64,000 nt of DNA from Alkalispirochaeta sp. (GTDB taxonomy: Bacteria > Spirochaetota > Spirochaetia > DSM-27196 > Alkalispirochaetaceae): positions 2,528,001 to 2,592,000 of the forward strand of contig OZ271854.1 in NCBI GenBank assembly GCA_965601925.1, written 5' to 3'. Positions 38,848 to 61,593 of the stretch are shown in pieces (within the stretch, counting starts at the first letter, position 1; each line of letters starts with the position of its first letter). The notes under the pieces were generated by a model. It was not told the DNA's origin. It saw only the letters and a list, made by a program, of their open reading frames with translations, and made no database searches. The position numbers were made by a program, and so were the translations under genes.

Positions 38848-38962
38848 AGGCCGTCCTTTCAGCTCCGTAAGCCGGAAGAAAGCTCCCGGAAACGCACGGA
38901 GTCGTAAATCGGCGGTCTCGACGAATTGCGGGACACCGCTTCTCTGTCCTATTCTTGTGGCT

Positions 38963-40744: not shown

Positions 40745-40770
40745 TCTCGTCGCGCCGAATGAATCTATAG

Positions 40771-41307: not shown

Positions 41308-41335
41308 ACGTTGCGCAGGTCGCGGCGCCCGAAGT

Positions 41336-43870: not shown

Positions 43871-45148
43871 CTACGGACAGCCCAGAGCGGCATCCTCTAC
43901 ACCGTAGAAACTGCGCGCTATGTACCACAGCTTCTTTTCCAAGTTGGTGTAGGAGAAGTATTTCAGGGCGAGATCGTAGTTCACCTCGACCATCTTCTCC
44001 GCGAGGCTCGGGTTATCCAGTACCTCGACGGTGCGCCGGATCGTCTCGTTCGAGACGAAATCGTCCATCTCGACGACACGGAACCCGAGCGGTTTGATGT
44101 CGTGGGAGTAAATCGAATAGTTGTTGACGACGATCGGTTTACGGAAATAGACCGCCTCCAGAAAGGCGTTCCCGAACCCCTCGAAGATCGACGGATACGT
44201 AACGAGATCGGCGTGGGGGTACACATCCTGCAGACTATATATCTTGCGTCCGTCGGAGGTCGTATCGCGTCGATCACCGATAACATCGTCGACGAAGATC
44301 GCTCGGATTCCCAACAACTCGGCGTATTCTTTTACTCGCGTCTGATATTCGTACCCCTCGTCTCCTGAGGCGTGCGAGATTACCAGCGCCGCCTTGCGAC
44401 CCAATCGAGCCACCAACTCGATGGCGTGTTCGATACCCTTCCGCTGGACGACGCGCGTCGGTTGTAAAATGAACAGTTCGTCGTCCGCGACACCTAACGC
44501 CCGGCGTACATCTTCGTTGTATTCGTCCAGCCCCGGGGCCGGCGTCTCGAAGTCCATCACGTTGGGAATGAGCGTGGAGCTGATACCGGTGCGCAGCGCG
44601 AGTTGGTTTTGTCCCGACGTGTTGATAACGACGTGGTGAACGTTGGGCAAGTGCGGTGGGAAGCAACTGTTGAGATAGTCCCACACGCAGTTGACCAGAA
44701 ACCGTTTACGCTCCCAAAAAAAATCGTGGTGGTGAGCGATCGTGTGAGTACCCGTCTCGGCGATGAACTCGGTAATCGCCATTCCCAGCGGTACGTTGAG
44801 CGGAATCGTAACTGCGTTTTCGGGGACGAGAATATCGATGTTGAATCGTTCGGCGAACTCGTACAGCGACGCCTTTATCTTTTCGCGGTGGTCGTGCAAC
44901 GTATGGGTGAGCTCTGCGGGGCGTACGGTGTTGGAGAAGCACGCCCGATAGGTGGAGCGGACATTCGGCTCTTGGAAATGAAAGTACGGCGCAAGCATAC
45001 TGTTGTCTTCCGGCGTATCCAGCTCACCGCCCAGGTAATAACAACTGCACCCGTTTCGCTCGAAGATGTCGGCCCACTTTTTGGTTTCAAGCGAGACCCC
45101 GTCGGTTCCGGCGATCCTGAATGAGACAAAGCCGATACGTTTATTCAT
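43871..45148 (-). CDS. GT4 glycosyltransferase, mannosylglucosylglycerate synthase-like
   Basis: RIAGTDGVSLETKKW, HHHDFFWER, PTRVVQRKGIE, YPSIFEGFGNAFLEA. Confidence 0.8.
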   Translation of the reverse strand: MNKRIGFVSFRIAGTDGVSLETKKWADIFERNGCSCYYLGGELDTPEDNSMLAPYFHFQEPNVRSTYRACFSNTVRPAELTHTLHDHREKIKASLYEFAERFNIDILVPENAVTIPLNVPLGMAITEFIAETGTHTIAHHHDFFWERKRFLVNCVWDYLNSCFPPHLPNVHHVVINTSGQNQLALRTGISSTLIPNVMDFETPAPGLDEYNEDVRRALGVADDELFILQPTRVVQRKGIEHAIELVARLGRKAALVISHASGDEGYEYQTRVKEYAELLGIRAIFVDDVIGDRRDTTSDGRKIYSLQDVYPHADLVTYPSIFEGFGNAFLEAVYFRKPIVVNNYSIYSHDIKPLGFRVVEMDDFVSNETIRRTVEVLDNPSLAEKMVEVNYDLALKYFSYTNLEKKLWYIARSFYGVEDAALGCP

Positions 45149-45220
45149 GTAGGAAAGTGTAGGATGGGATCGGTATCCGTGCAACCTTGGGTATCCTCCG
45201 CGTCCCGCCTAAGAATCTAT

Positions 45221-45946
45221 CTAATGAAACTCGCTATACCGCACACCGTCCTGATCGATCTCCCGCAGTAGCGCGAGCTCCTCCTGCGCGGGCGGCGACA
45301 GTTCCGCGCAATCGGCCGTCTCTGCGATGGGAAAGGCGGTGTTGCGGCGTATCTCGTCGCGATTGGAGTAGGGAAACCACCCCGCCAGACGCAGCTCGCC
45401 GTCCTCTACGCGCAACAGCCCCAACGGGGAGACGACCTCGCGGACATTACCGGCCGCGGTGACGAAGTCGCACCGGTCTGGAAAGCTGCGCCGGTCGTGG
45501 CGCGTACGCCATACGATGGTACGGCGGGCGGTGGGGACGATTGCGGCGCTCCCCGCACCTCCCGGGAGCTTGACCTTGGGTGCATCGAAGCGTCCGATAA
45601 CGCTGTTGTTTATGTTCCCTAACCGATCGATCTGCACGCCCCCCAAAAACGCGACGTCCAGCCGCCCGCGCGCCGAGAGGTCGAAGATATCGACGAGGGA
45701 AAAGAACGATTCGCTTCCTTCGAGAAAACGCGGGGAGCATGTTGAGCTGTCCAGCCGGGTGGGGTCGATGTTTACCCCGCCGGCGATGTTGAGATACAGA
45801 AGCGATCGGTTATGCATGCGCCGCGCCAGTGCGATAGCGACCGCCGGCAGAGGACTTGCAAGGCCGTGAAAGACGGTCTGCGCACCCTTGAGAAGCCGCG
45901 CCATCGTCACCGCCATAGCGTCACCCACAGTTGTTGTATCGATCAT
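45221..45946 (-). CDS. CoA-transferase family I beta-subunit-like protein (GctB/AibB-like)
   Basis: GRLDVAFLGGVQIDRLGNIN, KLPGGAGS; canonical ExG catalytic motif replaced by NIAG. Confidence 0.8.
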   Translation of the reverse strand: MIDTTTVGDAMAVTMARLLKGAQTVFHGLASPLPAVAIALARRMHNRSLLYLNIAGGVNIDPTRLDSSTCSPRFLEGSESFFSLVDIFDLSARGRLDVAFLGGVQIDRLGNINNSVIGRFDAPKVKLPGGAGSAAIVPTARRTIVWRTRHDRRSFPDRCDFVTAAGNVREVVSPLGLLRVEDGELRLAGWFPYSNRDEIRRNTAFPIAETADCAELSPPAQEELALLREIDQDGVRYSEFH

Positions 45947-46752
45947 TGTTCGCCATCCAAGAGACGGGCCAACGACTCCTCGTCGGCCGCCTCGATCAAA
46001 CTCGTTACGCCCTCCTCGTCGATCTCATACTCGCCGTAACAGCTCCCCGGCGCCGCGCCGCGTGGGGCGTGTACTACGGCATTGACCAGTACCGACGGGA
46101 TATCCACGTGATCCACGGGGACGGGAAGATCCGCCGTCTCGACGATATGTTCCGCGGTCAGCACTACCGTCCGCGCCGCGCGGGCCATAATGAGATCCTC
46201 GTTCTTTGAGCCCACGATGACGCCGTTTCCGGTCGTGTCGGCGTACTGGACGTGCATGACGGCCATGTCTGGAACGATGGCGGGTATCACTACGACGTGC
46301 TCCGTCTCGTCGTACGGATCGGCGATACGGCGGAACGATCGCGCCTCCACCAGATCGCTTCCGTCCAATCCGCGTACCGGAAGAAATCCCAGACCGTAGG
46401 ACGCCGCTCGCAGAGCGGCGATCACCGTATAGCAGGCGTGTTCCCGTGCCTTCACCGCGCCGGACTCTACCGCTCTTCGGTAGTGTCGAGCGAGGCCGAA
46501 GCGAGACTCGTATCCCACGAATCCCGCCGACACGTCGGTCACCATTCCCGCGAGGCACAATAGATCGATATCCCACGCTCCGGCGGTCTTGACGATATGG
46601 AGTTTAAGGTCGCCCCGGCGATGGCGCGCCAACGCTCTGATGAAGGAGTGGGGTACACGATGGAGGCTATTGCCGCCGACGGCGAGGGTCCTTGATCCCG
46701 GCTCGAGAAGTGCCGCGGCGCTACGCATGGAAGTGACTCGTGACGACGTCAT
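45943..46752 (-). CDS. CoA-transferase family I alpha-subunit-like protein (GctA/AibA-like)
   Basis: AVGG..LHRVP, LRAASYGLGFLP, GSDL, PAIVPDMAVMHVQYADTTGN, TAEHIV, APRGAAPGSC; ATGA coupling to the beta gene. Confidence 0.82.
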   Translation of the reverse strand: MTSSRVTSMRSAAALLEPGSRTLAVGGNSLHRVPHSFIRALARHRRGDLKLHIVKTAGAWDIDLLCLAGMVTDVSAGFVGYESRFGLARHYRRAVESGAVKAREHACYTVIAALRAASYGLGFLPVRGLDGSDLVEARSFRRIADPYDETEHVVVIPAIVPDMAVMHVQYADTTGNGVIVGSKNEDLIMARAARTVVLTAEHIVETADLPVPVDHVDIPSVLVNAVVHAPRGAAPGSCYGEYEIDEEGVTSLIEAADEESLARLLDGEQ

Positions 46753-46835: not shown

Positions 46836-46887
46836 ATGTGGTTTTGTGTGTTTTTTTGTTGACATCAGGTATAACCGGACCTACAAT
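46836..46887 (+). promoter_or_regulatory. BMC operon sigma70 promoter with upstream ATGTGGTTTT box
   Basis: TTGACA(46859)-17-TACAAT(46882); motif at 46836-46845. Confidence 0.75.
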
Positions 46888-46922: not shown

Positions 46923-47633
46923 ATGGTAGAGCTTTTGACGTACGCCTACTTGGACCGGTTGCAACCGCAATTTACCGCATTCGTCGCGACGATCGCCAAG
47001 GGGTACCTACCCCTTTCGGGGCAGGCGAGCCTTTGGGTCGAGATCCGCCCCGGCATGGATATCAACCGTCTGACCGACATCGCCCTCAAATCCAATGATG
47101 TGCAGCCCGGTATCATGTATGTGGAGCGCGCCGCGGGTGTGCTTGAGTTCCACAGCTACGACCAAGGCGCGGTCACCGAGGCGGGACACGCAATCCTCGC
47201 ATCCCTCGGCATGACGGTCGAAGATCGTCACAAGCCGGAGCTGGTTGGGTTGGAGACGGTGAAGAACGTCACGGACTTTCAGTGTCAGCTTATCAACCGT
47301 ATGCGTCACGGCAACATGATCCTGCCGGGCGAGACGCTGTTGACTATCGAGACGCAGCCGGCTTCCTACGCCGCATTGGCAGCCAACGAGGCGGAGAAGG
47401 CGGCGCGTATCAATATTCTCGAGGTGCGCGCAATCGGCGCCTTCGGGCGTGTCTATATCGGCGGTGAGGAGGGTGAAGTCCTGGCCGCCAAAGATGCGGC
47501 CGAACGCGCCGTCGGCGATATTGCCGGTCAAGGGCGCCTAAAGGAGATCACGAACCATTGGGTAATGGCGGGTAGAGACGATTCAACGGACGGCAAAGGA
47601 GACGCAAGGATATGGCGGATGCACTGGGGATGA
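46923..47633 (+). CDS. BMC shell trimer, double-stacking (BMC-Tdp, CcmP-like)
   Basis: [51 protein letters not shown]. Confidence 0.88.
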
Positions 47634-47911
47634 TCGAAGCGCAAGGATTTGTCGGCATGGTTGAGGCGGCCGACGCGATGGTCAAAGCCGCTAAGGTGGA
47701 GCTTGTCGGATACGAGAAGACCGGGGGCGGATACGTGACGGCGATCGTGCGCGGAGATGTCGCGGCGGTAAAGGCCGCCACCGAAGCGGGAGCCAAAAGC
47801 GCCGAGCGCGTCGGACGACTGGTGAGCGTTCACGTCATTCCGCGGCCTCACGAGAACGTCGATACGGCGCTCCCTCTGGGGCGTCAGGAACGCGGAAAAG
47901 GCGAGAAGTAA
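47612..47911 (+). CDS. BMC shell hexamer (BMC-H)
   Basis: [32 protein letters not shown] pore, [17 protein letters not shown]; 99 aa. Confidence 0.97.
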
Positions 47912-47923
47912 GGAGCGTGGACG

Positions 47924-48211
47924 GTGAATCTGGCCCGAGTCGTCGGTACGGTGGTTGCTACGCAAAAGGAACCATCGATGGTCGGGAGTACGTTTCTCGT
48001 CTTGGAGCGCTTGGCTCACGACCTGCAATCTGCCGGCGAGTTCGTCGTTGCCGTTGACGCCGTCGGCGCGGGGGAGTCTGAGGTCGTCCTATACGCCACG
48101 GGTTCGTCGGCGCGGCAAACCGCGGTGACGCGTGATCGACCGGCGGACGCGGTCGTGATGGCGATCGTCGACTCGTTTTCCATCGGCGACCGTACGGTGT
48201 TTAGGAAGTAG
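47924..48211 (+). CDS. BMC shell pentamer (BMC-P, EutN/CcmL family)
   Basis: ARVVGTVVATQK, VAVDAVGAG, GSSAR, DAVVMAIVD. Confidence 0.93.
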   Translation: MNLARVVGTVVATQKEPSMVGSTFLVLERLAHDLQSAGEFVVAVDAVGAGESEVVLYATGSSARQTAVTRDRPADAVVMAIVDSFSIGDRTVFRK

Positions 48212-48221
48212 CGGGGAGAGC

Positions 48222-49685
48222 ATGCTCTTACACGAACGCCATCTTGAACAAATCGTCGAACGGGTCGTCTCTCGCCTGACCGAAGAGGGAGTCGGAAGGT
48301 CCGCCGGACGCGTCGTCGCGAATCGAACGCATGAGGGCGCTTCGTTGCGTGATGTGCCGCATCTCGGCGTCTTTCGTGATATTGAGTCAGCCGTTGCCGC
48401 GGCGCAATCCGCCTCGCGAGAACTCTCTCGGCTACCCCTCGCTCGCCGGGATGAGATCGTCGGCGCGATGCGGCGTACCGCTCTGGATCACCTCGAGCTC
48501 CTCGCCGGGACGGCGCGGGAAGAGACCGGTATGGGTCGCGTCGAAGATAAGGTCGAGAAGAACCGCCTCGTCGCCGAGAAGACGCCGGGTGTCGAGGCGT
48601 TGGCTACCGCCGCGACGACCGGCGATCTCGGGATCACCCTCGATGCGCGCGCTCCGTACGGAGTGATCGGCGCCATCATTCCCAGCACCAATCCGACCGA
48701 GACGGTGATCAACAACGGTATCGGAATGTTCGCCGCCGGGAACGCCGTCGTCTTTAACCCGCATCCCGCCGCGGCGCGGTGCTCTTTGGCGATCATGAGT
48801 ATGCTCAATCGCGCCATCGCCGAGGGCGGCGGGCCGGAGCACTCCTTCGTCGCCGTAGAGGAACCGACGATCGATACTGCCACGGCGATTATGCGCGACC
48901 GGGACGTTCCCTTCTTGGCGGTCACCGGATCCGAGGGCGTCGTTGCCGCGGCCATGCAGAGCGGCAAGAAGGTCGTGGCGGCGGGGCCGGGCAATCCGCC
49001 GGCGGTCGTGGACGAGAGCGCCGACATCTCGAAGGCCGCCCGCGATATTCTGGCCGGTGGCTCCCTCGACAATAACATCATTTGCATCGCCGAGAAGGTC
49101 ACCGTCGTCGTCGAGGCGGTCGCCCGGCAGCTGGTAGAGGAGATGGGGAGGGCCGGTGCGTACTGCGCCTCGGCCAACCAAATTCGGCAGCTGCAGAATG
49201 TGTTGTTCGCCCGCGAGCCCGAGCCCGGGCGTCACACGCCGGTACGTCGCGAGTTCGTCGGGCGCGACGCGCGCGTGCTTTTGGAGGCGATCGGTACGCG
49301 CGTCGACGGCGATCCGCGGCTGATCTTGTGTGAGGTCTCACCGGATCACCCTTTTGCATGGACGGAGATGTTGATGCCGGTGATGCCCATCGTGCGGGTG
49401 CGCGACGTCGGCGAGGCGATAGACTACGCGGTCGCGGTTGAGGGTGGGAATCGACACACCGCGAGTATGCATTCCCGTAATATCGACGTCCTCACTGAAA
49501 TGGGGCGACGAATCGGCTGTTCGGTCTATGTGAAAAACGGCCCCAACTACGCCGGCTTGGGCTTAGGCGGCGAAGGAATCACCTCCTTCACCATCGCCTC
49601 TCGCACCGGCGACGGCCTCACCACCGCTCGGACCTTCTCCCGCGCCCAGCGCTGCGCCCTGGTCGGAAACTACGGCATCGTATGA
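48222..49685 (+). CDS. CoA-acylating aldehyde dehydrogenase (PduP/EutE family) with N-terminal encapsulation peptide
   Basis: ETGMGR, PSTNPTET, AAGPGNPP, DNNIICIAEK (catalytic Cys), EMLMP, HTASMHS, VKNGP, GLGGEG; N-terminal LEQIVERVVSRL helix plus linker. Confidence 0.93.
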   Translation: MLLHERHLEQIVERVVSRLTEEGVGRSAGRVVANRTHEGASLRDVPHLGVFRDIESAVAAAQSASRELSRLPLARRDEIVGAMRRTALDHLELLAGTAREETGMGRVEDKVEKNRLVAEKTPGVEALATAATTGDLGITLDARAPYGVIGAIIPSTNPTETVINNGIGMFAAGNAVVFNPHPAAARCSLAIMSMLNRAIAEGGGPEHSFVAVEEPTIDTATAIMRDRDVPFLAVTGSEGVVAAAMQSGKKVVAAGPGNPPAVVDESADISKAARDILAGGSLDNNIICIAEKVTVVVEAVARQLVEEMGRAGAYCASANQIRQLQNVLFAREPEPGRHTPVRREFVGRDARVLLEAIGTRVDGDPRLILCEVSPDHPFAWTEMLMPVMPIVRVRDVGEAIDYAVAVEGGNRHTASMHSRNIDVLTEMGRRIGCSVYVKNGPNYAGLGLGGEGITSFTIASRTGDGLTTARTFSRAQRCALVGNYGIV

Positions 49686-49692
49686 GGCGCAT

Positions 49693-50274
49693 ATGGCGTA
49701 TCGACTGACCATCGTACCGACGCCCGAGACGTTCGGCGCTCTGGAGTTGACCGGCATCGCCCGTGGATACGCGGTGGTAGATCGGATGCTCAAAAAGGCG
49801 CCAGTACGCCTCTTGGACGCCCGCGCATACTGTCCCGGAAAGTTTTTGATCGCAATATCCGGCGACGTCGCCTCCGTAGAAGAGGCGCTGGGGACCGGTA
49901 GTCGCCACGCCGGCGAGGCGCTCTTCGGTACCCTATGTGTCGCAAACATCAACCCGGGAGTCATTGCAGCGATCAACCGCGAGGCTGCGTGTGAGGTCGA
50001 CGACACGCTCGGTGTTGTGGAGAGTTTTTCCGCGGTATCGATCATCGACGCCGCCGACGGTGCGGTCAAAGAGGCGGACGTCGCGATTCACAGCATCAGT
50101 CTGCTGCAGGGGCTCGGCGGCAAGGCGTTTGCGCTGTTTGCCGGAGAGCTTTCGGAGGTTACCGCGGCGATCGAGGCGGCGCGGCGGCGCATACCCGGCG
50201 ATATGCTCGTGGAGGCTCAGATAATCCCCGAGATTTCGCCGGACGTCGCGCGGTTTCTACCGGGGAGGGAGTGA
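49693..50274 (+). CDS. BMC shell trimer, single-layer (BMC-Ts, PduT-like)
   Basis: GALEL..IARG..VVDRMLKKA, CPGKFL, GDVASV, second domain AADGAVKEA..GLGGK. Confidence 0.88.
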   Translation: MAYRLTIVPTPETFGALELTGIARGYAVVDRMLKKAPVRLLDARAYCPGKFLIAISGDVASVEEALGTGSRHAGEALFGTLCVANINPGVIAAINREAACEVDDTLGVVESFSAVSIIDAADGAVKEADVAIHSISLLQGLGGKAFALFAGELSEVTAAIEAARRRIPGDMLVEAQIIPEISPDVARFLPGRE

Positions 50275-50275
50275 C

Positions 50276-50545
50276 GTGTTTTTGGGACGGGCGATGGGTG
50301 TCGTTGAGGTTACAGTTGCGTGCGACGGCCTATCGGGGGTGCCGTTGTTGTGGGTGCAGCCAGAACGATCCGACGGCGCGCCGGCCGGCTCCGCAATCGT
50401 GGTCGCCGATTCGACCTACCGTGCCGGTCCGGGAGATCGCGTGTATATCGTCGACGGGCGGGAGGCGACCTTTCCGCTTCCCTCGCCGTTTGTCCCCGTC
50501 GACGCGACGATCGTCGGAATCGTCGACGAAGTGGATTGCCCATGA
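50276..50545 (+). CDS. BMC shell pentamer (BMC-P)
   Basis: MFLGRAMG, LLWVQP, VVAD…AGPGD, GREA, PVDATIVGIVD. Confidence 0.85.
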   Translation: MFLGRAMGVVEVTVACDGLSGVPLLWVQPERSDGAPAGSAIVVADSTYRAGPGDRVYIVDGREATFPLPSPFVPVDATIVGIVDEVDCP

Positions 50546-50817
50546 GATTGGGAGTCGTGCGCGGAACGGTTACCGCGACCGTAAAGCATCCCCATTACGA
50601 CGGTCGGCGGCTCTTGGTGGTCGCGCTGTGCGACCCTGCGGGGAACGCCGCCGGTAAAGAGACTGTGGCCGTCGATACGGTCGAGGCGGGAGTCGGGGAC
50701 CGCGTCTTGGTCCTGAAGGAGGGCAACTCGGCGCGGGCCGTGTTGGGATTGGATAAGCCCGCAGTGCAGGAGATGATTGTGGCGATCGTCGATTATGTGG
50801 AAGTAAGAGGAGCGTAG
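50542..50817 (+). CDS. BMC shell pentamer (BMC-P)
   Basis: MRLGVVRGTVTATVKH, VAVDTVEAGVGDRVLV, EGNSAR, IVAIVD; ATGA overlap with the previous gene. Confidence 0.9.
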   Translation: MRLGVVRGTVTATVKHPHYDGRRLLVVALCDPAGNAAGKETVAVDTVEAGVGDRVLVLKEGNSARAVLGLDKPAVQEMIVAIVDYVEVRGA

Positions 50818-50819
50818 CG

Positions 50820-51704
50820 ATGTTTCCTACCGAGTTGGAGGCGCGCAAGGACATTGCCCACTACAGTCGCAAGGTGCACGCCCACGGTTTGGTATCGGCC
50901 ACGGACGGTAACCTTTCCGTGCGTCTCGACGACGAACACGTTTTAATTACTCCATCGAGTATTCGCAAAGAGGATATGACGGTCGAAGCGCCGGTTATCG
51001 TGACGATGGCGGGAGAGTTGGCGTGGGGAGAACGGCGTCCATCGACGGAGGTGAAGGTGCATCTCGAAGCGTATCGCCGCCGAAGGGATATCAAAGCGGT
51101 GATTCACGCCCATCCGCCGAAGGCGATCGCCTTTACCATCGCCGGCGCCTCGCTGGATACGTGCGTGCTCCCAGAGGTGGTGGTGACTCTCGGCGACGTC
51201 CCGATAGCGCCGTACGCGACGCCCAGCACCGACGACCTCCCCGCATCCATGAGCGATCTCATTTGCAATAGCGACGTCGTCATGCTTGCGCGCCACGGAA
51301 GTGTTACGGTGGGACCGACCCTTGCCGACGCATTCAAAAAGTTGGAAAAGCTGGAGCATAACGCGGAGATTCTGATATACGCCCGAGTTCTGGGCGGTGC
51401 GACGCCCTTCTCAACGGAGCAGTTGGAAGAGCTTCAGAATTTGCGAACCTTCTACGGCGTCACGACGACGGTCAATGCATGTTCCCGCAGGACGAATGGA
51501 GAGTCGGTGGCGGCGCCGTGCCGGAAGTACGCGGTGGAGTCCGAGATCCATGCGCCTACATATCGGTCCGATCGTGACGTCTCGACGCCGACCCACGGAT
51601 CGGGCGGCGCACCGATCGGCGTTCAGAGAGATCCCGGTGCGACCGATGTCGAGGTAGACGCCCTGATAGATGAGATCGTCGCGCGCGTGCGTGCTCGACT
51701 CTGA
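50820..51704 (+). CDS. Class II (FucA-like) aldolase with C-terminal encapsulation peptide
   Basis: DGNLSVR, ITPS, PSTE..VH, AVIHAHP, ARHG; long low-complexity tail ending VDALIDEIVARVRARL. Confidence 0.9.
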   Translation: MFPTELEARKDIAHYSRKVHAHGLVSATDGNLSVRLDDEHVLITPSSIRKEDMTVEAPVIVTMAGELAWGERRPSTEVKVHLEAYRRRRDIKAVIHAHPPKAIAFTIAGASLDTCVLPEVVVTLGDVPIAPYATPSTDDLPASMSDLICNSDVVMLARHGSVTVGPTLADAFKKLEKLEHNAEILIYARVLGGATPFSTEQLEELQNLRTFYGVTTTVNACSRRTNGESVAAPCRKYAVESEIHAPTYRSDRDVSTPTHGSGGAPIGVQRDPGATDVEVDALIDEIVARVRARL

Positions 51705-51736
51705 GATAACGTCCAAGAACGATAAGGAGGAACGTC

Positions 51737-52939
51737 GTGGCGTATAAGACCCTCAACGAACGGACAGCGATCGATTATGTGAGTAAAAAAACGCACCCCT
51801 TCTCCGATACCTCGGCGCTGGCGTGTCGTGAAATAGGCGACGGGAATCTCAACATGGTCTTTCGTGTGTGGGATACCGGTGATTCGCATAAGAGCGTGAT
51901 AATCAAACAGTCGCTCCCCCACGCCCGCATAGACGAGAGTATCGTGGCACCCCTGGATCGGGCGCGTATCGAGAGTGAAATGTTGGTGCTCCACGATCGA
52001 CACTGTCCGGGGCTCGCGCCCAAGATTCACGATTACGACCGCGAGATGTACGCGATCGTCATGGAGGATCTCTCGGATCACGTCGTGCTTCGCAAAGGGT
52101 TGATCAAGGGCGTTGTCTACCCGCGCCTGGCCGATCACATGGGGGAGTTTCTCGCTCGTTCGCTTTTTCTGACATCCGATCTGGGCATGGACCCGCAGGA
52201 AAAGAAGGAGTTACAAAAGCAGTTCATTAATCCAGCGCTGTGCAAAATCACTGAGGATCTCGTCTTCAGCGAGCCGTACTTCGACGCCCCGAACAACAAG
52301 ATCGACCCGGAGATTCGCGAGCGCGTCGAAGAGAATTGGAGCGACGGCGCGCTCAAACGGGAGGTCGCCGTCCTCAAGGAGTCGTTCATGACCCACGCTC
52401 AGGCGCTCATTCACGGAGATCTTCACACCGGGAGTGTTTTCGTCACTACCGAGAGCACCAAGGCGTTCGACCCCGAATTCGGCTTCTTCGGTCCCATGGG
52501 ATTCGATATCGGCGCGATTCTGGGCAACCTCATTTTGAATCACGCGAGCCACATCTGGCACACCGCCGACGAGGCGCAGCGCGCCTCGTACCGCGAGTAT
52601 CTTCTGACCACGTTCAAAGGTATTTGGGAGACCTTCTCGCGCCTCTTTCGAGCGTTGTGGCGCGAGAAGGTGACGACGCCTATGGAGAGTAATCCGCTCT
52701 ATATGGAGAGCTACATGAAACGGCTCTTTGCCGACGCCATCGGCTTCGCGGGGTGTAAGATGACGCGGCGCATCGTCGGTCTTGCTCAAGTTGAAGATAT
52801 CCGGTCCATCGAGGACGCCATGGTGCGTGAGGCGGCGCAGGTCACCGCGCTGAATACGGCGCGGGATTTCATCATGAAGCGGCGGGAGTATCGTTCGATC
52901 GACGAGGTTGTAGAGACAGTGCGCGCCCATCAAGTGTAG
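51737..52939 (+). CDS. mtnK: 5-methylthioribose / 5-deoxyribose kinase
   Basis: EIGDGNLNMVF, IKQSLP, LCKITEDLVF, LIHGDLHTGS, DPEFGFFGPMGFDIG, RRIVGLA; SD AAGGAGG. Confidence 0.95.
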   Translation: MAYKTLNERTAIDYVSKKTHPFSDTSALACREIGDGNLNMVFRVWDTGDSHKSVIIKQSLPHARIDESIVAPLDRARIESEMLVLHDRHCPGLAPKIHDYDREMYAIVMEDLSDHVVLRKGLIKGVVYPRLADHMGEFLARSLFLTSDLGMDPQEKKELQKQFINPALCKITEDLVFSEPYFDAPNNKIDPEIRERVEENWSDGALKREVAVLKESFMTHAQALIHGDLHTGSVFVTTESTKAFDPEFGFFGPMGFDIGAILGNLILNHASHIWHTADEAQRASYREYLLTTFKGIWETFSRLFRALWREKVTTPMESNPLYMESYMKRLFADAIGFAGCKMTRRIVGLAQVEDIRSIEDAMVREAAQVTALNTARDFIMKRREYRSIDEVVETVRAHQV

Positions 52940-52978
52940 CCGGTGTGTTATATTCCCCTACGTAGGAGGATGTGACCG

Positions 52979-53761
52979 ATGCTCGCTGTGGAGAGGCGCC
53001 ATGCTATTTTCGGAATACTTCAGGAGACCGGCAGCGTAACGGTCGTCGAGTTGTCGCGACGGTTCGACGTGAGCGAAGAGACGATCCGACGCGATCTCAC
53101 CAAGATGGAGAGCTCCGGATTGCTGCAAAAGACATACGGCGGCGCGTTTCTCAACAGCGGGATGCACCTGGAAGTTCCCGTGACGATGCGGGAGCACACG
53201 TATGTTGAGGGTAAGAACATCATCGGAACCCTCAGCTCGCAGTTGATACATAACGGCGATACTATTTTTCTCGACGCCAGTACGACCGCGGTTTATATCG
53301 CCGAGAACATCCTCGACAAGAAGAATCTCATCGTGATTACCAATGCGCTAAAAGTCGCCGAAACGTTGGCCCGCGGTCCCGGGATCAAAGTTATCTGCGC
53401 CGGGGGGACGTTGAGATCCCAGTCTCTTACGATGGTCGGCAAGGCCGCGGAGACGGCGATTGCCACCTACTTTGCCGACAAAGCCTTCATCTGTTGTGAC
53501 GGCGTCCATCGTCTGCACGGGGTCACGGACGCCAATGAAAAAGAGGCGGAGATTCGCAAACAGATGATGCGTCAGGCCGAGAGCTCGATCCTGGTGGTCG
53601 ACGCAACCAAGTTCGACAAAACGTCGTTCGTCCATATGGCCGATTTCGGCGCCTTCGACGTGATGGTCACCGACCGCGAGGTATCGTCGGAGTGGAGAAC
53701 GACGTTGGAGGAGCACGATGTCCAGCTCCGATGCGGAGTCGCTCCGAGCGGCGCCGCATGA
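52979..53761 (+). CDS. DeoR/GlpR-family transcriptional regulator
   Basis: FDVSEETIRRDL, TYGGA, IFLDASTT, ITN, DATKF. Confidence 0.93.
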   Translation: MLAVERRHAIFGILQETGSVTVVELSRRFDVSEETIRRDLTKMESSGLLQKTYGGAFLNSGMHLEVPVTMREHTYVEGKNIIGTLSSQLIHNGDTIFLDASTTAVYIAENILDKKNLIVITNALKVAETLARGPGIKVICAGGTLRSQSLTMVGKAAETAIATYFADKAFICCDGVHRLHGVTDANEKEAEIRKQMMRQAESSILVVDATKFDKTSFVHMADFGAFDVMVTDREVSSEWRTTLEEHDVQLRCGVAPSGAA

Positions 53762-53931
53762 ACCGTCGATTCGGGGGAGCCGCGTCGTCGTGAACGCTTC
53801 TGGCGACCGAGGCGCGTAAAAAGTCACCACATTCATGTCTTTCTCTCCGATATACGCGCGGCACGGTATCGACGCCCTCTCCGGAATGTGTCGGAAGTGA
53901 CGGCGTTCGATCTATCTCCGTTTTTTCATAG

Positions 53932-54043
53932 AAAACCACATAAACAGTCATCAAGATAAAAAATCATTTGACATTGCACGATTGTGGGAGCATAATTCTG
54001 GAAAACCAGCTAAGAAACAACATTAGCTTGGTATAAAACCACA
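53932..54043 (+). promoter_or_regulatory. ABC/mtnA operon promoter flanked by AAAACCACA boxes
   Basis: TTGACA(53968)-17-CATAAT(53991); boxes at 53932 and 54035, variants at 54002 and 54015. Confidence 0.75.
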
Positions 54044-54081
54044 AAATTGGCATATCATATGCCGGGTACAAGGAGGGGAAG

Positions 54082-55149
54082 ATGCAAAGGAGTCTAATTC
54101 TGTTTTTGATTACCGTGCTGGTCGCAGGTACCGGTTTCGTATACGCCGCCGGCCAGGGCGAGTCCGACGAAAACGTGACGAGAATCGAAGGTGCTCCCGC
54201 CCCCTTCGACGGAAGTGCCGGGCGGCAGCTGCATATCGCGCACATCAGCTATTTGGTCGAGGGCGAGTTTATGCAGATGTATCGCGCCGGTCTGGAGGCT
54301 CAGGCACAGGAACTCGGTATGCGCGTTACGGTGCTCGGAAGACAGGGCGACGCGCAGGCGCAGGCCAATTTCGTGAATCAGGCGATCAACCTCGGCGTCG
54401 ACGGCATTGTCATTCAGCACGGGCTCACCGAAACGATGCGGGGCCCCGCCCAGGACGCTTTGGACGCCGGCATTCCCGTGGTCGCGTTCGACGTCGATCT
54501 ACAGAATTCGAATATCCCGCAAGTGGCGCAAAACGACCCGCAACACGGATTGAACGCAATCACTGCGATCGTCGAGGATTTCGGTGGAAACGTCGACATG
54601 GCCTACGTGCGTGTTGCCGGCATTCTGCCCCTCGACAAGCGCGACGGACCGATTCAGGAGATCGTTGCCGCCTATCCGAACGTGAGTATTGTGGCCCAGA
54701 CCGGTACACTCGACTCTCCTATTGCCGTGCGCAATGCCGACCAGGCCCAGGCGGTGCTACGGGCAAACCCGAGTATTCAGGCGTATTTAGCGCCGTACGA
54801 CGAGTTTGCCAAGGGTATCGTTCTTGCTCTGGAGGAGTTGGAGATGACCGACTCGGTGCGGGTGTACAGCATCGATATCTCGACGCAGGACATCGAGATC
54901 ATGACGCAGCCCGGTAGTCCCTGGGTCATGACCTCCGCGGTCAATCCCGCGGAGATGGGGGCCGTGTCGGTGCGCACCCTTGCGCAAGTAATGGCCGGCG
55001 AGGATGTGCCGCGCGATGTTCTGGTGGAGCCCATGATTTTCACCGCCGATATGCTGCGCGAGGCGGGTGTGACGAACATGGAAGAGCTCATGGCGAGTTT
55101 CGCGGCATTTAACGAATCCCCGGCGGCGCGTTCTATTTGGATGCCCTGA
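54082..55149 (+). CDS. Sugar ABC transporter substrate-binding protein (candidate methylthioribose/deoxyribose binding)
   Basis: Spirochaete-type signal (…VYAAGQGE), QAINLGVDGIVIQHG, AGIPVVAFD, APYDEFAKG. Confidence 0.88.
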   Translation: MQRSLILFLITVLVAGTGFVYAAGQGESDENVTRIEGAPAPFDGSAGRQLHIAHISYLVEGEFMQMYRAGLEAQAQELGMRVTVLGRQGDAQAQANFVNQAINLGVDGIVIQHGLTETMRGPAQDALDAGIPVVAFDVDLQNSNIPQVAQNDPQHGLNAITAIVEDFGGNVDMAYVRVAGILPLDKRDGPIQEIVAAYPNVSIVAQTGTLDSPIAVRNADQAQAVLRANPSIQAYLAPYDEFAKGIVLALEELEMTDSVRVYSIDISTQDIEIMTQPGSPWVMTSAVNPAEMGAVSVRTLAQVMAGEDVPRDVLVEPMIFTADMLREAGVTNMEELMASFAAFNESPAARSIWMP

Positions 55150-55267
55150 TAACGAGATCAGATACGATTTTTTCCTCGACGATAGATGCCGCCGTCCCGA
55201 TACGGGGCGACGGCCGAGCCATACTTGCGTATGATCGTGGATACCGATTGCGCGTGCGGAGAGCATT

Positions 55268-56347
55268 ATGCATTATGACGAACGGACGATGACGAATACC
55301 GAAACGATCAAGAGCATCGAGTGGCGTTCAGGAGCACTCTTTCTTCTCGATCAAACGAAGCTGCCTCTATCGGTAGAGGTCGAGGAACAGACGAGCGTCG
55401 AACAGGTATGGGACTCCATCAGGCAGTTGAAGGTACGCGGAGCGCCGGCGATCGGTGTCGCGGGCGCGTACGGTCTGGTCGTCGCGATGCGGGACAAAAC
55501 AAGTCTCGATAGGCCTTCATTTCTCGCGGAACTTCGGCGACAAGCCGCCTATCTGGACTCGTCGCGTCCGACCGCCGTCAACCTTCATTGGGCGTTGACG
55601 CGCTGCGTTCGCGTCGTTGACGCCGTCGAAGGTGGAACGGGCGACGAACTCCTGGCGACGCTCGTCGCCGAGGCGGAAGCGATCCACAAGGAGGATCTGC
55701 TTCTGTGCCGACGCATCGGCGAACGCGGGGAGCATCTCATCCGCGAAGGCGTCGGTATCCTCACCCACTGTAACGCCGGACGGCTCGCGGCCTCCGACTA
55801 CGGGACCGCTACCGCGCCCATGTATCTCGCTCATGAGAAGGGCGTACGGTTTACCGTCTATTCCGACGAGAGTCGGCCGTTGTTGCAGGGCTCGCGACTC
55901 ACCGCGTGGGAGCTGCGGGAGGCCGGAATCGATGTGTATACGATTACCGACAATATGGCCGCCTTTGTAATGCAAAAGGGGTTGATCGACATGGTGATCG
56001 TCGGTACCGATCGCGTGGCGGCCAACGGCGACGTCGCCAATAAAATCGGCACCATGGGCGTGGCGATTCTCGCCAAACACTTCGGTATCCCGTTCTACGT
56101 TGCGAGTCCCGCCTCCACCATCGACCTCAACACGGCTACCGGCGACGATATCGTGATCGAGGAGCGTAGTACGGACGAAGTGACGCACTTCGGCCTTAGA
56201 CGCACCGCTCCCGAAGGTGTCAAGGTACGTAACCCGGCTTTCGACGTGACGCCCGGAGAGTTGGTCACCGCGTTTATCACCGATGCGGGCGTCATCGAAC
56301 CGCCGTACGACGCGAATCTCGCGCGCATGTTCGCGCCGGACGCGTAA
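55268..56347 (+). CDS. mtnA: Methylthioribose-1-phosphate / 5-deoxyribose-1-phosphate isomerase
   Basis: LLDQTKLP, VRGAPAIG, SRPTAVNL, LTHCNAG, ESRPLLQGSRLTAWEL, GTDRVAANGDVANKIGT, NPAFDVTP. Start may be 55289. Confidence 0.95.
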   Translation: MHYDERTMTNTETIKSIEWRSGALFLLDQTKLPLSVEVEEQTSVEQVWDSIRQLKVRGAPAIGVAGAYGLVVAMRDKTSLDRPSFLAELRRQAAYLDSSRPTAVNLHWALTRCVRVVDAVEGGTGDELLATLVAEAEAIHKEDLLLCRRIGERGEHLIREGVGILTHCNAGRLAASDYGTATAPMYLAHEKGVRFTVYSDESRPLLQGSRLTAWELREAGIDVYTITDNMAAFVMQKGLIDMVIVGTDRVAANGDVANKIGTMGVAILAKHFGIPFYVASPASTIDLNTATGDDIVIEERSTDEVTHFGLRRTAPEGVKVRNPAFDVTPGELVTAFITDAGVIEPPYDANLARMFAPDA

Positions 56348-56370
56348 CGTCGCGTATCGAGGAGGCGCGT

Positions 56371-57906
56371 GTGGCTCGACCGTCCCCATTGATTGAAGTA
56401 CGAAACATCGGCAAATCCTTCGGTGCGACGCGGGCGCTGGACGATGTTTCGGTGGAGTTCTTTCCCGGCGAGGTCTTGGCGATGGTAGGCGCCAACGGGG
56501 CGGGCAAGTCGACGTTGATAAAGATCATCTGCGGATATCACGTAGACTTCGACGGTGAAATCGTGATCGGGGGTCGGCCGGTACGTTTGGCGACGCCGAA
56601 AGACGCTGCCGACAACGGTGTCGCGACGGTACACCAGATCATCAACCAAGGCGTCGTACAGAGTATGTCGGTGTATGAGAATCTTACGTTGGCCGAGCTG
56701 CTCGCTCCGGGTCAACGTCCCTTCTATGATAGAAATGCGCTTCGCGAGCGCGCGCGAGAGATCGCGCTTTTGATGGGGCTTGAGGTCGATTTGGACGTCG
56801 CGGTGGAGGATTTGAGCCAGTCCGACCGACAACTCATCGCCATCGCTCGCGCCTTGGCGGGAGATCCGAAGCTCCTCATTCTGGACGAGCCGACCAGTTC
56901 ATTATCCGAGAAGGAGTCCGAGCGCCTTTTTGAGATGTTGGAACGGCTCAAGGCGACGGGCGTCTCGATTCTGTACGTCTCGCATCGCCTACACGAAATC
57001 GGGCGTATCGCCGACCGCGTGGTGGTCCTACGAGACGGGACCACCGCGGGAACGCTGACGCGTCCCTTCGACGTCAAGGAGATGGTAACCAGAATGGTCG
57101 GAGAGATTCCCAAGCACCAGCACATGGTACGAAGCAACGGTCGCGACGAGGCGGAGCTCAAGATCGCGTTGCGCGATCTGGTCGTGAGCGAGGGTTCTCC
57201 GCCCGTAAACTTGCGCATCCATCGCGGCGAGATACTCGGCATAACCGGGCTCATCGGAGCGGGGAAAAGCGAGTTGGCCCAGGTGTTGTTCGGGATCAGG
57301 CGGCCCGTTTCCGGCGATATTCTGGTGGATGGACGGCGTATCGCGCCGCGGAGCGTCGCCGAGGCGGTCGCGCGGGGAATCTTCTACGTACCGGAGGATC
57401 GCACCAACAACGCGGTCGTACCTATGTTTACGGTGCGGCAGAATATGACGCTTCCTTTTTTGCGCGTCTTCGACTGGTTGGGAATCATGAAGATCGGCAG
57501 CGAACGCCGGCGGACCCGCGCTATGATCGAGGCGATGGGCATTAAGTGCGACGGCGAAGAGGCTGAAATGGACAGTCTCTCAGGCGGTAATCAACAAAAG
57601 GTCGTCGTGGCGCGGTGGCTTCTGGAGTCCTTCGAACTGGTGATTCTCGACGAGCCCTTTCAGGGCGTCGATGTCCGCTCGCGTCACGATATAGGACGCC
57701 ATCTGAGGGAGCACATCGGCGAACGGGCGGCGATCGTCATCGCGACCGATCTGGACGAGGTTATCGAAGTCGCCGACCGCATCATCGTTATGAACGCCGG
57801 CGCGATTGTCGGAGAGCAGCTCTATGAAAACATCGATCGCGATCAACTTCTCCATTGGGTCTCCCAGGAGGCCCCGCAAGGCGAGCGGGAGGCGCTTGAA
57901 GCATGA
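56371..57906 (+). CDS. Sugar ABC transporter ATP-binding protein (tandem NBD)
   Basis: GANGAGKS, LILDEPT, VSHR, GLIGAGKS, PEDR, LSGGNQQK. Confidence 0.93.
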   Translation: MARPSPLIEVRNIGKSFGATRALDDVSVEFFPGEVLAMVGANGAGKSTLIKIICGYHVDFDGEIVIGGRPVRLATPKDAADNGVATVHQIINQGVVQSMSVYENLTLAELLAPGQRPFYDRNALRERAREIALLMGLEVDLDVAVEDLSQSDRQLIAIARALAGDPKLLILDEPTSSLSEKESERLFEMLERLKATGVSILYVSHRLHEIGRIADRVVVLRDGTTAGTLTRPFDVKEMVTRMVGEIPKHQHMVRSNGRDEAELKIALRDLVVSEGSPPVNLRIHRGEILGITGLIGAGKSELAQVLFGIRRPVSGDILVDGRRIAPRSVAEAVARGIFYVPEDRTNNAVVPMFTVRQNMTLPFLRVFDWLGIMKIGSERRRTRAMIEAMGIKCDGEEAEMDSLSGGNQQKVVVARWLLESFELVILDEPFQGVDVRSRHDIGRHLREHIGERAAIVIATDLDEVIEVADRIIVMNAGAIVGEQLYENIDRDQLLHWVSQEAPQGEREALEA

Positions 57907-58940
57907 GTTCACAAATACATCCAGGGACGGTCGCGGACCGTCGCGCGGTGGACCGCACGGAACGGCTCAAACGGTTTTCCATCCGGTACGGATTTCTCAT
58001 CGTGATGGCGGCGTTGTTCGTGATTTTTGGGATCATACAACCGGTCTTTTGGCGGCCGGGGAACCTCTTTTCGATTCTCCTCGGCGTGACGGTATATGGA
58101 ATTTTAGCCTTGGGAGTGACCTTTCCCCTTGTGATCGACGGACTGGATCTGTCGATCGGCTCGGTCGCGGCGCTGTCGGTGATGATTTCGGCGTATATGA
58201 TGGTCGTTCTGGAGACGAGCGGCCTTGCGGCGATCATTGCGTGCCTAAGCCTGGGCGCGTTTATCGGGTTGATAAACGGTATATTGATCGTCAGGGTCAA
58301 AATACCGGACCTTCTCGCCACGTTGGGTATGATGTTTTTGGTACAGGGTTTGCAGCTCATCCCCTCCGGCGGACGATCGATCGGCCGTGGCGCGGTGCTC
58401 GCCGGCGGCGTGACCGCGCGCGGTGAGTTTGCCGACTACTTTCTCTTTTTGGGGCAGGGTCGCATATTGGGTATCGTACCGACGGCGGTGGCGATTATGC
58501 TCGTGGTTGCCGTCCTCGTATTTGTCGTGCTCTCCCTCACGCGTTGGGGGCGCATCTTTTACGCCATCGGCAGCAACGCCGAGGCGGCGCGGTTGGTCGG
58601 CGCCAAAGTCGATACGTATCGTATCATGGCCTACGTCATCTCCGGTACGATCGCCGCTCTCGGCGGTATCGTGTTGGCTGCGCGGGTGGGGCGGGGTGAT
58701 GTTCAGTCCGGCGGCACGCTCCTGTTGGACGCGGTCGGTTCGGCGCTTATCGGTTTTGCGGTGCTCGGCGTGCGTAAGCCAAACCCATTCGGCACCATCG
58801 TCGGAGCGATTTTCATCGGCATGCTGCTTAATGGGTTGACGATGCTCAACATGCCGTATTTCGTGCAGGACTTCATCAAAGGCGTGGTGTTGGTCGCCGC
58901 ATTGGCCTTCACCTTCGGACTGTCCAAGACCAAGACGTGA
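57903..58940 (+). CDS. Sugar ABC transporter permease (RbsC-like)
   Basis: Multiple TM helices, LDLSIGS, LATLG, YAIGSNAEAARLVG. Confidence 0.92.
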   Translation: MSSQIHPGTVADRRAVDRTERLKRFSIRYGFLIVMAALFVIFGIIQPVFWRPGNLFSILLGVTVYGILALGVTFPLVIDGLDLSIGSVAALSVMISAYMMVVLETSGLAAIIACLSLGAFIGLINGILIVRVKIPDLLATLGMMFLVQGLQLIPSGGRSIGRGAVLAGGVTARGEFADYFLFLGQGRILGIVPTAVAIMLVVAVLVFVVLSLTRWGRIFYAIGSNAEAARLVGAKVDTYRIMAYVISGTIAALGGIVLAARVGRGDVQSGGTLLLDAVGSALIGFAVLGVRKPNPFGTIVGAIFIGMLLNGLTMLNMPYFVQDFIKGVVLVAALAFTFGLSKTKT

Positions 58941-59343
58941 CCGATCTCCTCGTTCCGGCGAGCGAAGATGTTCGGCGCCGTGGGAATCGGCGCCTCACGA
59001 GTCGATTCAGAGTATCCATCGCTTCGGTCCCCGGTGTGCGCAGGGAAATATCGGTGATCGTTGCGGTATGTTCGCATTGATCGGTATTGATCTCGATGAT
59101 CGTCGCTCCATAGCGCTTCGCCATCGTCGGAAGCATCCCCGCCGGGTACACTTCTCCGATCGTACCGACGACGAGCATGGCATCGGCCGCCCGAGCGGCT
59201 TTTCCTGCGAGCTGCGTCGTCTCAGACGGTATCCCGTCGCCGAAGAAGACGACATCGGGCCGCAACAGCGCTCTCCCTTCGGACCGCGTCGGTGCGCTGT
59301 TTCCGGCCCGGCGGTAGTCGTCGGTCGATACGGATGTTTCCAC
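58909..59343 (-). pseudogene. Truncated sirtuin (CobB/Sir2) remnant, C-terminal half only
   Basis: LRPDVVFFGD, LVVGT.GEVYPA and IIEIN are present; the GAGxS, QNID, HG and Zn-Cys motifs are absent. Confidence 0.7.
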
Positions 59344-61128: not shown

Positions 61129-61593
61129 TCAGGCCGAGATTTCGGCTCCCGATAGTATGCGTTCCACTTTTTCGCCGTTTTTTTCGACGATGCTTTGCAG
61201 CGTGATACTATCGAAGTAACCGAGAATGTGGTCGGAGACCTCTTGCCAGACGGAATAGACGATACACCGGTCCATACGATCGCACGGGTCGACGCCCTCG
61301 GTCGGGTTGCACGTGGTGCATGGGGTGAGATCCAAACCCTCGTCCACCGCAATGAAGATGTCTTTCATCGTGATTGACGACGGATCTTTTTCGAGAACGA
61401 AACCGCCGCCGGGACCGCGCACGGAGCCGATAACACCGGCCTTCTTCAACTTAAAGAAAATCTGTTCCAGAAACTCGGGAGAGATATCTTCTTCGGCCGC
61501 GATCACTTTGATAGGGCGCGGTTTCCCGTTAAACGATATTGCGAGATTCGTGAGGGCGCGCAGTGCATACCGGCCCTTTGTCGTTATCCTCAT
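61129..61593 (-). CDS. Rrf2-family (IscR-like) regulator
   Basis: MRITTKGRYAL, ISPEFLEQI, SVRGPGGGF; Cys cluster CTTC…C…C. Confidence 0.9.
   Translation of the reverse strand: MRITTKGRYALRALTNLAISFNGKPRPIKVIAAEEDISPEFLEQIFFKLKKAGVIGSVRGPGGGFVLEKDPSSITMKDIFIAVDEGLDLTPCTTCNPTEGVDPCDRMDRCIVYSVWQEVSDHILGYFDSITLQSIVEKNGEKVERILSGAEISA

Follow-up and report, generated by a model that had tools for sequence, protein, structure and literature searches.

A predicted microcompartment for the catabolism of 5-methylthioribose and 5-deoxyribose in Alkalispirochaeta sp.

A locus for a predicted bacterial microcompartment (BMC) was found in a window of 64,000 nucleotides from Alkalispirochaeta sp. (assembly GCA_965601925.1, contig OZ271854.1, positions 2,528,001 to 2,592,000 of the forward strand; coordinates below are those of the window, i.e. 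the whole stretch analysed). By its domains it comprises genes for a full set of BMC shell proteins, and we consider it quite probable that it is a metabolosome in which 5-methylthioribose and 5-deoxyribose are catabolised by an encapsulated dihydroxyacetone phosphate (DHAP) shunt. Gene families were assigned by Pfam and NCBIfam profile scans with curated cut-offs. The initial annotation had listed 14 clustered genes at 46923-58940, for BMC shell proteins, aldehyde dehydrogenase (AldDH), aldolase, MtnK, a DeoR regulator, an importer and MtnA; a check of the open reading frames (ORFs) found all of them as stated, in the same order and on the plus strand. The list was correct but two genes short, since it missed a CoA-transferase-fold pair at 45221-46752 on the minus strand. 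Many catalogued microcompartment types with a class II aldolase and an AldDH have no known substrate; this locus names its substrate directly because importer, kinase and isomerase genes are in the operon. If the reading is true, this would be the first organelle for by-products of S-adenosylmethionine (SAM), and the shunt would end differently: where E. coli disposes of the aldehyde as ethanol or methylthioethanol, here it would be retained as acyl-CoA.

The proposed pathway would run as follows. The ABC system, judged by its family, would import the sugar, and MtnK and MtnA, whose family functions come from other organisms, would make a 5-substituted ribulose-1-phosphate, presumably in the cytosol. 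The tailed aldolase, packed inside the shell, would cleave this phosphate to DHAP and acetaldehyde or (methylthio)acetaldehyde, a step suggested by synteny, gene fusions and the active site; the packed AldDH would trap the aldehyde as acetyl-CoA or (methylthio)acetyl-CoA, and ATP could be gained from acetyl-CoA through the genome's Pta and AckA. The CoA-transferase-fold pair may act on (methylthio)acetyl-CoA to give acetyl-CoA and a methyl mixed disulfide via Cys107 of the alpha subunit, and NADH-dependent reduction of the mixed disulfide could then free methanethiol and restore NAD+.

The substrate is predicted from the importer, the kinase and the isomerase. The best PDB match of the binding protein is 4RY8 (E=7e-58), an entry titled 5-methylthioribose transporter binding protein; the next match has E=3e-33 and generic sugar binders have 1e-15 or weaker. 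Rhizobial homologues of the binding protein (about 50% identity) adjoin mtnK-mtnA in both of the records opened, of 201 matches. MtnK and MtnA exceed their equivalog cut-offs, as expected for a DHAP shunt, and neither carries a terminal extension in the orthologue alignment. These features support the proposed import of the sugar, here by a transporter of the methylthioribose type, and its phosphorylation and isomerisation in the cytosol. The genome is a single contig (96.7% complete) in which the shell genes, mtnK and mtnA each occur nowhere else, all BMC-domain genes being at the locus.

The same architecture could in principle serve another 5-substituted or an unsubstituted pentose, such as ribose (giving glycolaldehyde), methylthioribose sulfoxide or the 5-dimethylarsinoyl-ribose of algal arsenosugars. 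We consider a different sugar improbable. It would fit the identity of the binding protein to 4RY8, which is only 34-35% and weighs against our assignment, the second binding protein (PF01547) between deoR and the importer in several relatives, and the presence of a dedicated acyl-CoA-handling pair, which would suit any non-acetyl product; the methylthioribose kinase and DrdA have also been called promiscuous (PMC6079011). However, MtnK and MtnA lie far above their equivalog cut-offs and are the sole copies in the genome, generic ribose binders score far below 4RY8, and the alternative partner of the kinase-isomerase module in relatives is a RuBisCO-like protein.

The class II aldolase is the predicted signature enzyme. 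It falls below all NCBIfam cut-offs (78 bits against 137 for MtnB and 76 against 400 for FucA; the RhaD cut-off is likewise not reached). Residues E77, H96, H98 and H159 are invariant in all 30 aligned homologues, and E77 aligns with Glu76 of 6BTD, which we take to be DrdA, the code being mentioned once in PMC6079011. Glu76 is described as the catalytic residue of DrdA in that paper. The link of the aldolase to the MtnA product rests on genetics, i.e. synteny and fusions: the five close copies with no shell gene on the stretch retrieved (three of them on contigs shorter than 5 kb) adjoin mtnA, one shell-free copy is a 583-residue aldolase-MtnA fusion, and a search for longer proteins gave two matches among 2204 candidates, one fused to MtnA and one to MtnK (the fusions are L041 and P0121 with MtnA, P0122 with MtnK). 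These associations support the assignment of the aldolase as the probable next enzyme after MtnK and MtnA, as the initial annotation had it. A 55-row tree (without L086, which duplicates L085, and without a characterised Ald2) places shell-linked and shell-free copies together in a single clade (21 rows, support 100/99) in which the shell-free copies are nested; the FucA-like aldolases from mtnA operons fall outside it on long branches. One genome, G015, holds one shell-linked and one shell-free copy. Such shell-free copies of the same aldolase are a built-in control for why pathways are encapsulated. A phylum sample of 400 genomes gave no further close copy, and co-occurrence of mtnA with the distant members of the branch was uninformative (13 of 17 genomes, compared with 259 of 401 in the background). 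On the widest reading, the same branch is the orphan signature enzyme of several catalogued types with no assigned function (HO, MIC3/4, MUF2/3 and PVM-like), some of which may serve the same shunt.

It is very unlikely that the locus is a fucose/rhamnose organelle of the PVM type (Planctomycetes/Verrucomicrobia), in which a 6-deoxyketose-1-phosphate would be cleaved to lactaldehyde and mtnK, mtnA and the importer would be unrelated neighbours. A class II aldolase, a BMC-P triplet and a DeoR regulator are indeed common to both (PMC8217296, PMC4207490), and in the relative G060 the core is paired with an FGGY kinase. The locus has, however, no fucose or rhamnose isomerase or kinase, and its aldolase misses the FucA and RhaD cut-offs. 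The aldolase is still found beside or fused to mtnA once the shell is lost, mtnK follows it directly in most loci, and one motif stands at both promoters of the locus.

A PF00596 aldolase and an acylating AldDH over its cut-off, the pairing of a metabolosome, are both present. Encapsulation is predicted from the ends of the two enzymes, with the helix pattern of encapsulation peptides as the criterion. A linker and an amphipathic C-terminal helix occur on the aldolase in 13 of 13 shell-linked copies and in none of the five shell-free, mtnA-linked ones. Seventeen distant aldolases from the phylum sample behave in a similar way, the tail being clear in the eight genomes with BMC-P genes and in one with an adjacent BMC-H gene, and absent or degenerate in the other eight. 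The AldDH has an N-terminal helix like an encapsulation peptide in 8 of 9 orthologues; its best PDB match is 4C3S, and its catalytic Cys column is the position mutated in 5DBV. Cleavage inside the shell with capture by the AldDH, the central proposal of the initial annotation, is therewith given a candidate packing signal on each enzyme. Stand-alone tailed aldolases were seen in genomes with BMC-P genes elsewhere (L098-L112, in G064, G065, G080, G081, G094, G107 and G118); within this set the tail is missing where no BMC-P was found. A Brevibacillus laterosporus record (L143:9707-12816) has deoR, mtnA and a tailed aldolase with no shell gene within 12 kb, possibly a satellite of a shell locus.

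Two of the shell proteins deserve comment. The first BMC-T is 236 amino acids long against 205-208 in seven relatives, an overrun of about 30 residues at the C-terminus, and its reading frame overlaps the BMC-H start by 22 bases, either by a lost stop or by an assembly slip near 47540. The CPGK cysteine of the PduT-like BMC-T is kept in seven of nine compared sequences. A PduS partner for this protein was considered in a second rnfC-like gene (G000:2675787) and rejected; the gene stands among ORFs resembling membrane subunits with no shell gene nearby, and no satellite gene set was found there.

Could the pathway run at low flux in the cytosol to dispose of 5'-deoxyadenosine and methylthioadenosine that the cell itself produces, with an optional or vestigial shell? 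Of 16 genomes of the genus, 15 have mtnA, in most cases with neither mtnK nor this shell, shell-free aldolase-mtnA pairs exist, and the first BMC-T has the odd overrun in the window. We nevertheless give this little credence, and slightly less than the PVM-type organelle: the shell genes are all intact and highly conserved across families (BMC-H 85-97%), the aldolase tail is kept only with a shell, G015 holds both kinds of aldolase, and importer and kinase genes accompany those of the shell, a sign that the sugar comes from outside the cell.

The genome has no MtnB over its cut-off, no acireductone dioxygenase and no RuBisCO-like protein, the markers of the universal methionine salvage pathway (MtnC was not searched), so the lack of mtnB and of the dioxygenase that had been noted for the window holds genome-wide. 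That the class II protein is an MtnB dehydratase of ordinary methionine salvage, a member of the same superfamily often found after mtnK/mtnA (PMC6302742), is hardly credible and was rejected on its MtnB score, the lack of a dioxygenase or RuBisCO-like enolase, and the presence of an acylating AldDH and a shell, for which methionine salvage has no role.

Shared regulation probably links the two halves of the locus. Two promoter-like sites with 11 of 12 consensus matches each lie at 46859 (shell operon) and 53968 (importer). The motif AAAACCACA has three exact matches in the window, one at the first promoter and two at the second, against 0.11 expected, a shuffle figure that is optimistic because the motif was chosen from the same alignments. 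The 8-base core AAACCACA is exact at the shell promoter in 6 of 8 orthologous regions (at most one mismatch in all eight) and at the importer promoter in 10 of 12 (at most one mismatch in all twelve), and the motif position is conserved across families. A DeoR-family repressor, MtnR, governs the DHAP shunt of E. coli (PMC12632272), and the alignments suggest that the DeoR protein of the locus likely controls both promoters via the common motif. A wider regulon was considered and rejected; the remaining 12 genome copies of the motif are all inside long ORFs.

The full locus is present in eight genomes from three families of one Spirochaetia order (G000, G004, G007, G010, G017, G019, G024 and G471). 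In G004, G007 and G010 the locus had to be put together from pieces on different contigs; the G007 assembly yielded no mtnA, and G010, which is 7% contaminated, holds another, partial copy of the locus. The arrangement was also seen on one metagenome contig, and a metagenome scan with MtnK gave one locus of 30 with a shell (L068), the others being ordinary mtnK-mtnA clusters or short contigs. The arrangement is no product of chance, as related genomes repeat it with proteins that are 55-95% identical, and the synteny of BMC, mtnK and mtnA genes, for which a search had been recommended, extends to all three families. Among 99 genomes of the order, 14 have mtnK, and in 10 of these it is clustered with shell genes and the same aldolase. 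In two of the ten (G044 and G015) the module has no shell genes beyond the pentamer triplet; it is accompanied by a shell of the ethanolamine type and an acetaldehyde dehydrogenase, which lie next to it in G044 but at another place of the genome in G015. The remaining four, all of one genus, share the importer-mtnA-mtnK module, which a RuBisCO-like gene adjoins in three of them (G032, G047 and G464; the fourth contig is too short to tell). In these three the shell and aldolase are absent, and the best PDB match of the RuBisCO-like protein is 3QFW, presumably R. palustris RLP1. RuBisCO-like proteins of the DeepYkr clade act on the same substrate, methylthioribulose-1-phosphate (PMC5893883).

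Several variants were noted among the related loci. In L039, on the same contig as G044:C8, genes for ethanolamine ammonia-lyase, EutE, EutJ and shell proteins run into the triplet, aldolase, mtnK, importer and mtnA, a hybrid operon that resembles the two 'SPU6-related Spirochaetes' loci of the catalogue. The PF01547 second binding protein has no permease of its own (L035, L037, L038 and L039) and is found in many related loci and in Acetoanaerobium noterae, not in the window. In spirochaetes and on rhizobial plasmids, the importer-mtnK-mtnA genes are also accompanied by a split transketolase, a RuBisCO-like protein or both (L066:8368-13610, L059, L060, L128, L135 and L136), possibly a further fate of 5-deoxy- or methylthio-ribulose-1-phosphate.

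The CoA-transferase-fold pair is divergent from the shell operon and shares its promoter region. Of 61 genomes, 7 have close orthologues (62-67% identity), and these are precisely the ones that carry the full locus; in a class-wide sample the pair was matched in 5 of 401 genomes, all with a shell-mtnK-mtnA locus. Ile54 of the beta subunit is aligned to AibB Cys56, which takes the place of the Gct catalytic Glu (PMC7756340, PMC5380842); this column is Ile in all eight locus-linked proteins and Glu in all four distant paralogs. Because the beta catalytic Glu (Glu54 in Gct) is missing, the pair cannot be a canonical family I CoA-transferase of the GctAB kind, and this identity was rejected. Cys107 of the alpha subunit sits in the column of IpdA Glu105; E-x-x-C is found in 120 of 120 best homologues, and the Cys is absent from the four distant paralogs.

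Outside the close relatives, a search of a plasmid collection led to the cultured Firmicute A. noterae DSL2 (L142:13908-29708, NZ_CP154629.1), where 7 kb separate the best matches to the pair from the best match to the aldolase. The gene order there is deoR, aldolase, AldDH, BMC-H genes, PduL, BMC-P, second binding protein, CoA-disulfide reductase, the pair, importer, mtnK and mtnA. Another spirochaete, G656, has mtnK, mtnA, aldolase, AldDH, shell, a PduL-like gene, an alcohol dehydrogenase, a CoA-disulfide reductase and the pair. In both, the reductase before the pair passes the PRK09564 cut-off, and since both loci already hold PduL, release of CoA is unlikely to be the pair's sole purpose there. 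A precedent for methylthio removal as a mixed disulfide is the methylthioxylulose-5-phosphate methylsulfurylase of R. rubrum (PMC13474568, PMC6302742).

From its distribution and residues, the pair likely handles (methylthio)acetyl-CoA. By analogy, it may remove the methylthio group in a thiol-dependent manner through Cys107, a speculative role that we favour weakly and hold as tentative; simple hydrolysis or acyl transfer through Cys107 is about as likely, with some other reaction as a third option. Taken jointly, a metabolosome for the sugar waste of SAM with at least two shell builds in two phyla and an undescribed Cys-dependent C-S cleavage, giving a redox-balanced fermentation to DHAP, acetyl-CoA and methanethiol, is rather doubtful as a whole. 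If the pair does release methanethiol, a volatile sulfur compound would be formed anaerobically by a new route, and the fold would gain a new reaction.

A number of points weigh against the encapsulated shunt and the role of the pair in it. Substrate and encapsulation are both predicted; encapsulation peptides were called by visual inspection with a simple pattern rather than with a profile, and the genomes compared are related and so do not count as independent samples. The best PDB match of the aldolase, 6BTD, is a weak one (E=9e-24 over 202 residues); the enzyme is distant from DrdA and nearer to orphan microcompartment aldolases of other phyla, and class II aldolases are described as promiscuous (PMC4207490). 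The same core of shell, AldDH and aldolase (66% identical) stands in G060 without mtnK, followed by an FGGY kinase and a class II aldolase of the fructose-bisphosphate type (L028, L065), and this gene set indicates that the core can serve another sugar. No alcohol dehydrogenase gene lies within the locus and PduL was not found anywhere in the genome, which leaves cofactor recycling inside the shell unexplained, and E. coli is unable to ferment 5-deoxyribose for redox reasons (PMC10986504). The only CoA-disulfide-reductase-like protein of the window genome is an unlinked, 861-residue protein below the cut-off, and a reductase-like gene is common in relatives without the locus (51 of 61 genomes), so that the mixed-disulfide step would have to proceed here without a local reductase; a reductase tracking the locus in close relatives was looked for and rejected, there being no correlation. 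As an observation in its own right, the G060 core looks like a sister organelle for another sugar.

The pathway of the initial annotation is thus supported in its sugar and aldehyde steps, but it left the regeneration of NAD+ and CoA unaddressed. The recycling by PduL and alcohol dehydrogenase that is a hallmark of metabolosomes is missing from the locus, as it is from several catalogued BMC types (PMC8217296, PMC4207490). Elsewhere in the genome are two acetate kinases, Pta-family genes, six matches to iron alcohol dehydrogenases, an MtnN-like nucleosidase and MetY. The initial annotation had also named three outcomes that would speak against it, namely an aldolase of other specificity, mtnK and mtnA induced apart from the shell genes, and a locus type already characterised; as far as sequence and the open literature can show, none of them was encountered. 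The features of the locus are collected in Table 1.

Table 1. Genes and sites of the predicted metabolosome locus (window coordinates)
Feature	Position	Strand	Basis
CoA-transferase-fold beta subunit (GctB/AibB/IpdB-like)	45221..45946	-	PF01144; best PDB match AibB
CoA-transferase-fold alpha subunit, Cys107 in EHACY motif	45943..46752	-	PF01144
Conserved motif AAAACCACA, candidate DeoR operator just upstream of shell-operon promoter	46837..46845	-	Alignment of orthologous regions
Sigma70-type promoter-like site TTGACA-17-TACAAT	46859..46887	+	11/12 consensus matches; -35/-10 boxes conserved in alignment
BMC-T, CcmP-like double-stacking type	46923..47633	+	Pfam/NCBIfam
BMC-H hexamer shell protein	47612..47911	+	PF00936, 103 bits
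BMC-P pentamer 1 of triplet	47924..48211	+	PF03319
PduP-type CoA-acylating AldDH	48222..49685	+	PRK15398, 607 bits against cut-off 403
BMC-T, PduT-like, with CPGK cysteine	49693..50274	+	Pfam/NCBIfam
BMC-P pentamer 2	50276..50545	+	PF03319
BMC-P pentamer 3	50542..50817	+	PF03319
Class II aldolase, linker and C-terminal helix, predicted signature enzyme	50820..51704	+	PF00596
MtnK (methylthioribose/5-deoxyribose kinase family)	51737..52939	+	TIGR01767, 500 against cut-off 275; PDB 2OLC, E=6e-101
DeoR-family regulator	52979..53761	+	Pfam/NCBIfam
Two AAAACCACA motifs (53932, 54035) flanking promoter-like TTGACA-17-CATAAT (53968-53996)	53932..54043	+	Alignment
ABC binding protein, methylthioribose-binding family	54082..55149	+	Best PDB match 4RY8
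MtnA (methylthioribose-1-P/5-deoxyribose-1-P isomerase family)	55268..56347	+	TIGR00512, 437 against cut-off 279
Sugar ABC ATPase	56371..57906	+	Pfam/NCBIfam
Sugar ABC permease	57903..58940	+	Pfam/NCBIfam

At the end of the locus lies a gene remnant (58909-59343, minus strand) that covers no more of a Sir2-family protein than its C-terminal part. Further downstream are genes for an Rrf2-family regulator (61129-61593, minus) and a methyl-accepting chemotaxis protein (61790-63412, plus). Upstream, the stretch 37180-45184 holds glycosyltransferase genes (one weakly similar to mannosylglucosylglycerate synthase) and a GH13 sucrose-phosphorylase-like gene, possibly a compatible-solute cluster, and a gene for a patatin-like outer-membrane protein lies at 41336-43576.

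The initial annotation knew of no characterised BMC with this substrate, and none was found in the catalogue texts and literature searched. The text and readable supplements of the Sutter 2021 catalogue (PMC8217296), as far as available, contain no 'methylthio', 'IF-2B' or PF01144, '01008' only as part of a locus tag, and PF01636 for no type other than RMM; mtnK/mtnA could still be drawn unnamed in its locus diagrams, which as images lie outside a text search. The available main text of Axen 2014 (PMC4207490) has no 'methylthio' and no PF01008. No paper joining microcompartments to the DHAP shunt was found in a search of mainly open-access papers, and the word 'microcompartment' is absent from the DHAP-shunt papers searched.

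Of the known subunit pairs, AibA/AibB, IpdAB and GctAB share the two-subunit fold (TM 0.74-0.79) with the pair of the locus, and AibAB and IpdAB also lack the beta Glu. The pair differs from all three by an Ile where they have the beta Glu/Cys and by a Cys in place of IpdA Glu105, and it is only 24-29% identical to them; no solved structure of its subfamily is among the PDB matches.

Among known organelles, HO type II (Haliangium, function unknown) has the nearest shell recipe, with one BMC-H, a BMC-P triplet, single and double-stacking BMC-T and an AldDH with an N-terminal peptide; some of its loci have a PF00596 aldolase, and no PduL is mentioned in the available text. HO loci differ in belonging to Deltaproteobacteria, in having two double-stacking BMC-T, and in being described there without mtnK, mtnA, importer or CoA-transferase (the comparison is with the catalogue description, not with the catalogue's hidden Markov model typing). 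The PVM type shares the class II aldolase signature, BMC-P triplet, DeoR and acylating AldDH; PVM loci are defined by a Planctomycetes/Verrucomicrobia host, two BMC-H and an acetate kinase in the locus, whereas the present locus is in another phylum (Spirochaetota), has one BMC-H and two BMC-T, lacks PduL, acetate kinase and dehydrogenase, and has MtnK, MtnA and the importer. The PVM-like type of Firmicutes likewise has a class II aldolase, DeoR and AldDH, and the A. noterae and G656 loci combine a PVM-like shell (several BMC-H, one BMC-P, PduL) with mtnK, mtnA and the pair. The shell in the window, with one BMC-H, three BMC-P and no PduL, falls outside the PVM-like definition, and mtnK/mtnA are not mentioned for PVM-like loci in the catalogue texts as far as these could be searched. 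The SPU type (2-deoxyribose-5-phosphate), also found in spirochaetes, resembles the locus in its nucleoside-derived deoxysugar phosphate, its aldolase and the acylation of the aldehyde; it differs in being defined by a class I DeoC (PF01791) and RpiB (PF02502), neither of which is among the locus proteins.

The closest pathway is the DHAP shunt itself (DrdK-DrdI-DrdA in B. thuringiensis; MtnK-MtnA-Ald2 and MtnR in E. coli; MtnP-MtnA-Ald2 in R. rubrum/R. palustris), in which kinase, isomerase, class II aldolase, sugar transporter and DeoR regulator are likewise in one cluster, and whose catalytic Glu and metal-binding His residues are kept in the locus aldolase. The locus differs from it by the addition of shell genes, an acylating AldDH and the CoA-transferase-fold pair, and by a tailed aldolase from another branch of the family. 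In the known shunts the aldehyde goes mainly to ethanol/acetate or 2-methylthioethanol (PMC6079011, PMC10986504, PMC12632272, PMC5893883). By analogy with these systems, the organelle is predicted to work like an aldolase metabolosome and the pathway like a DHAP shunt.

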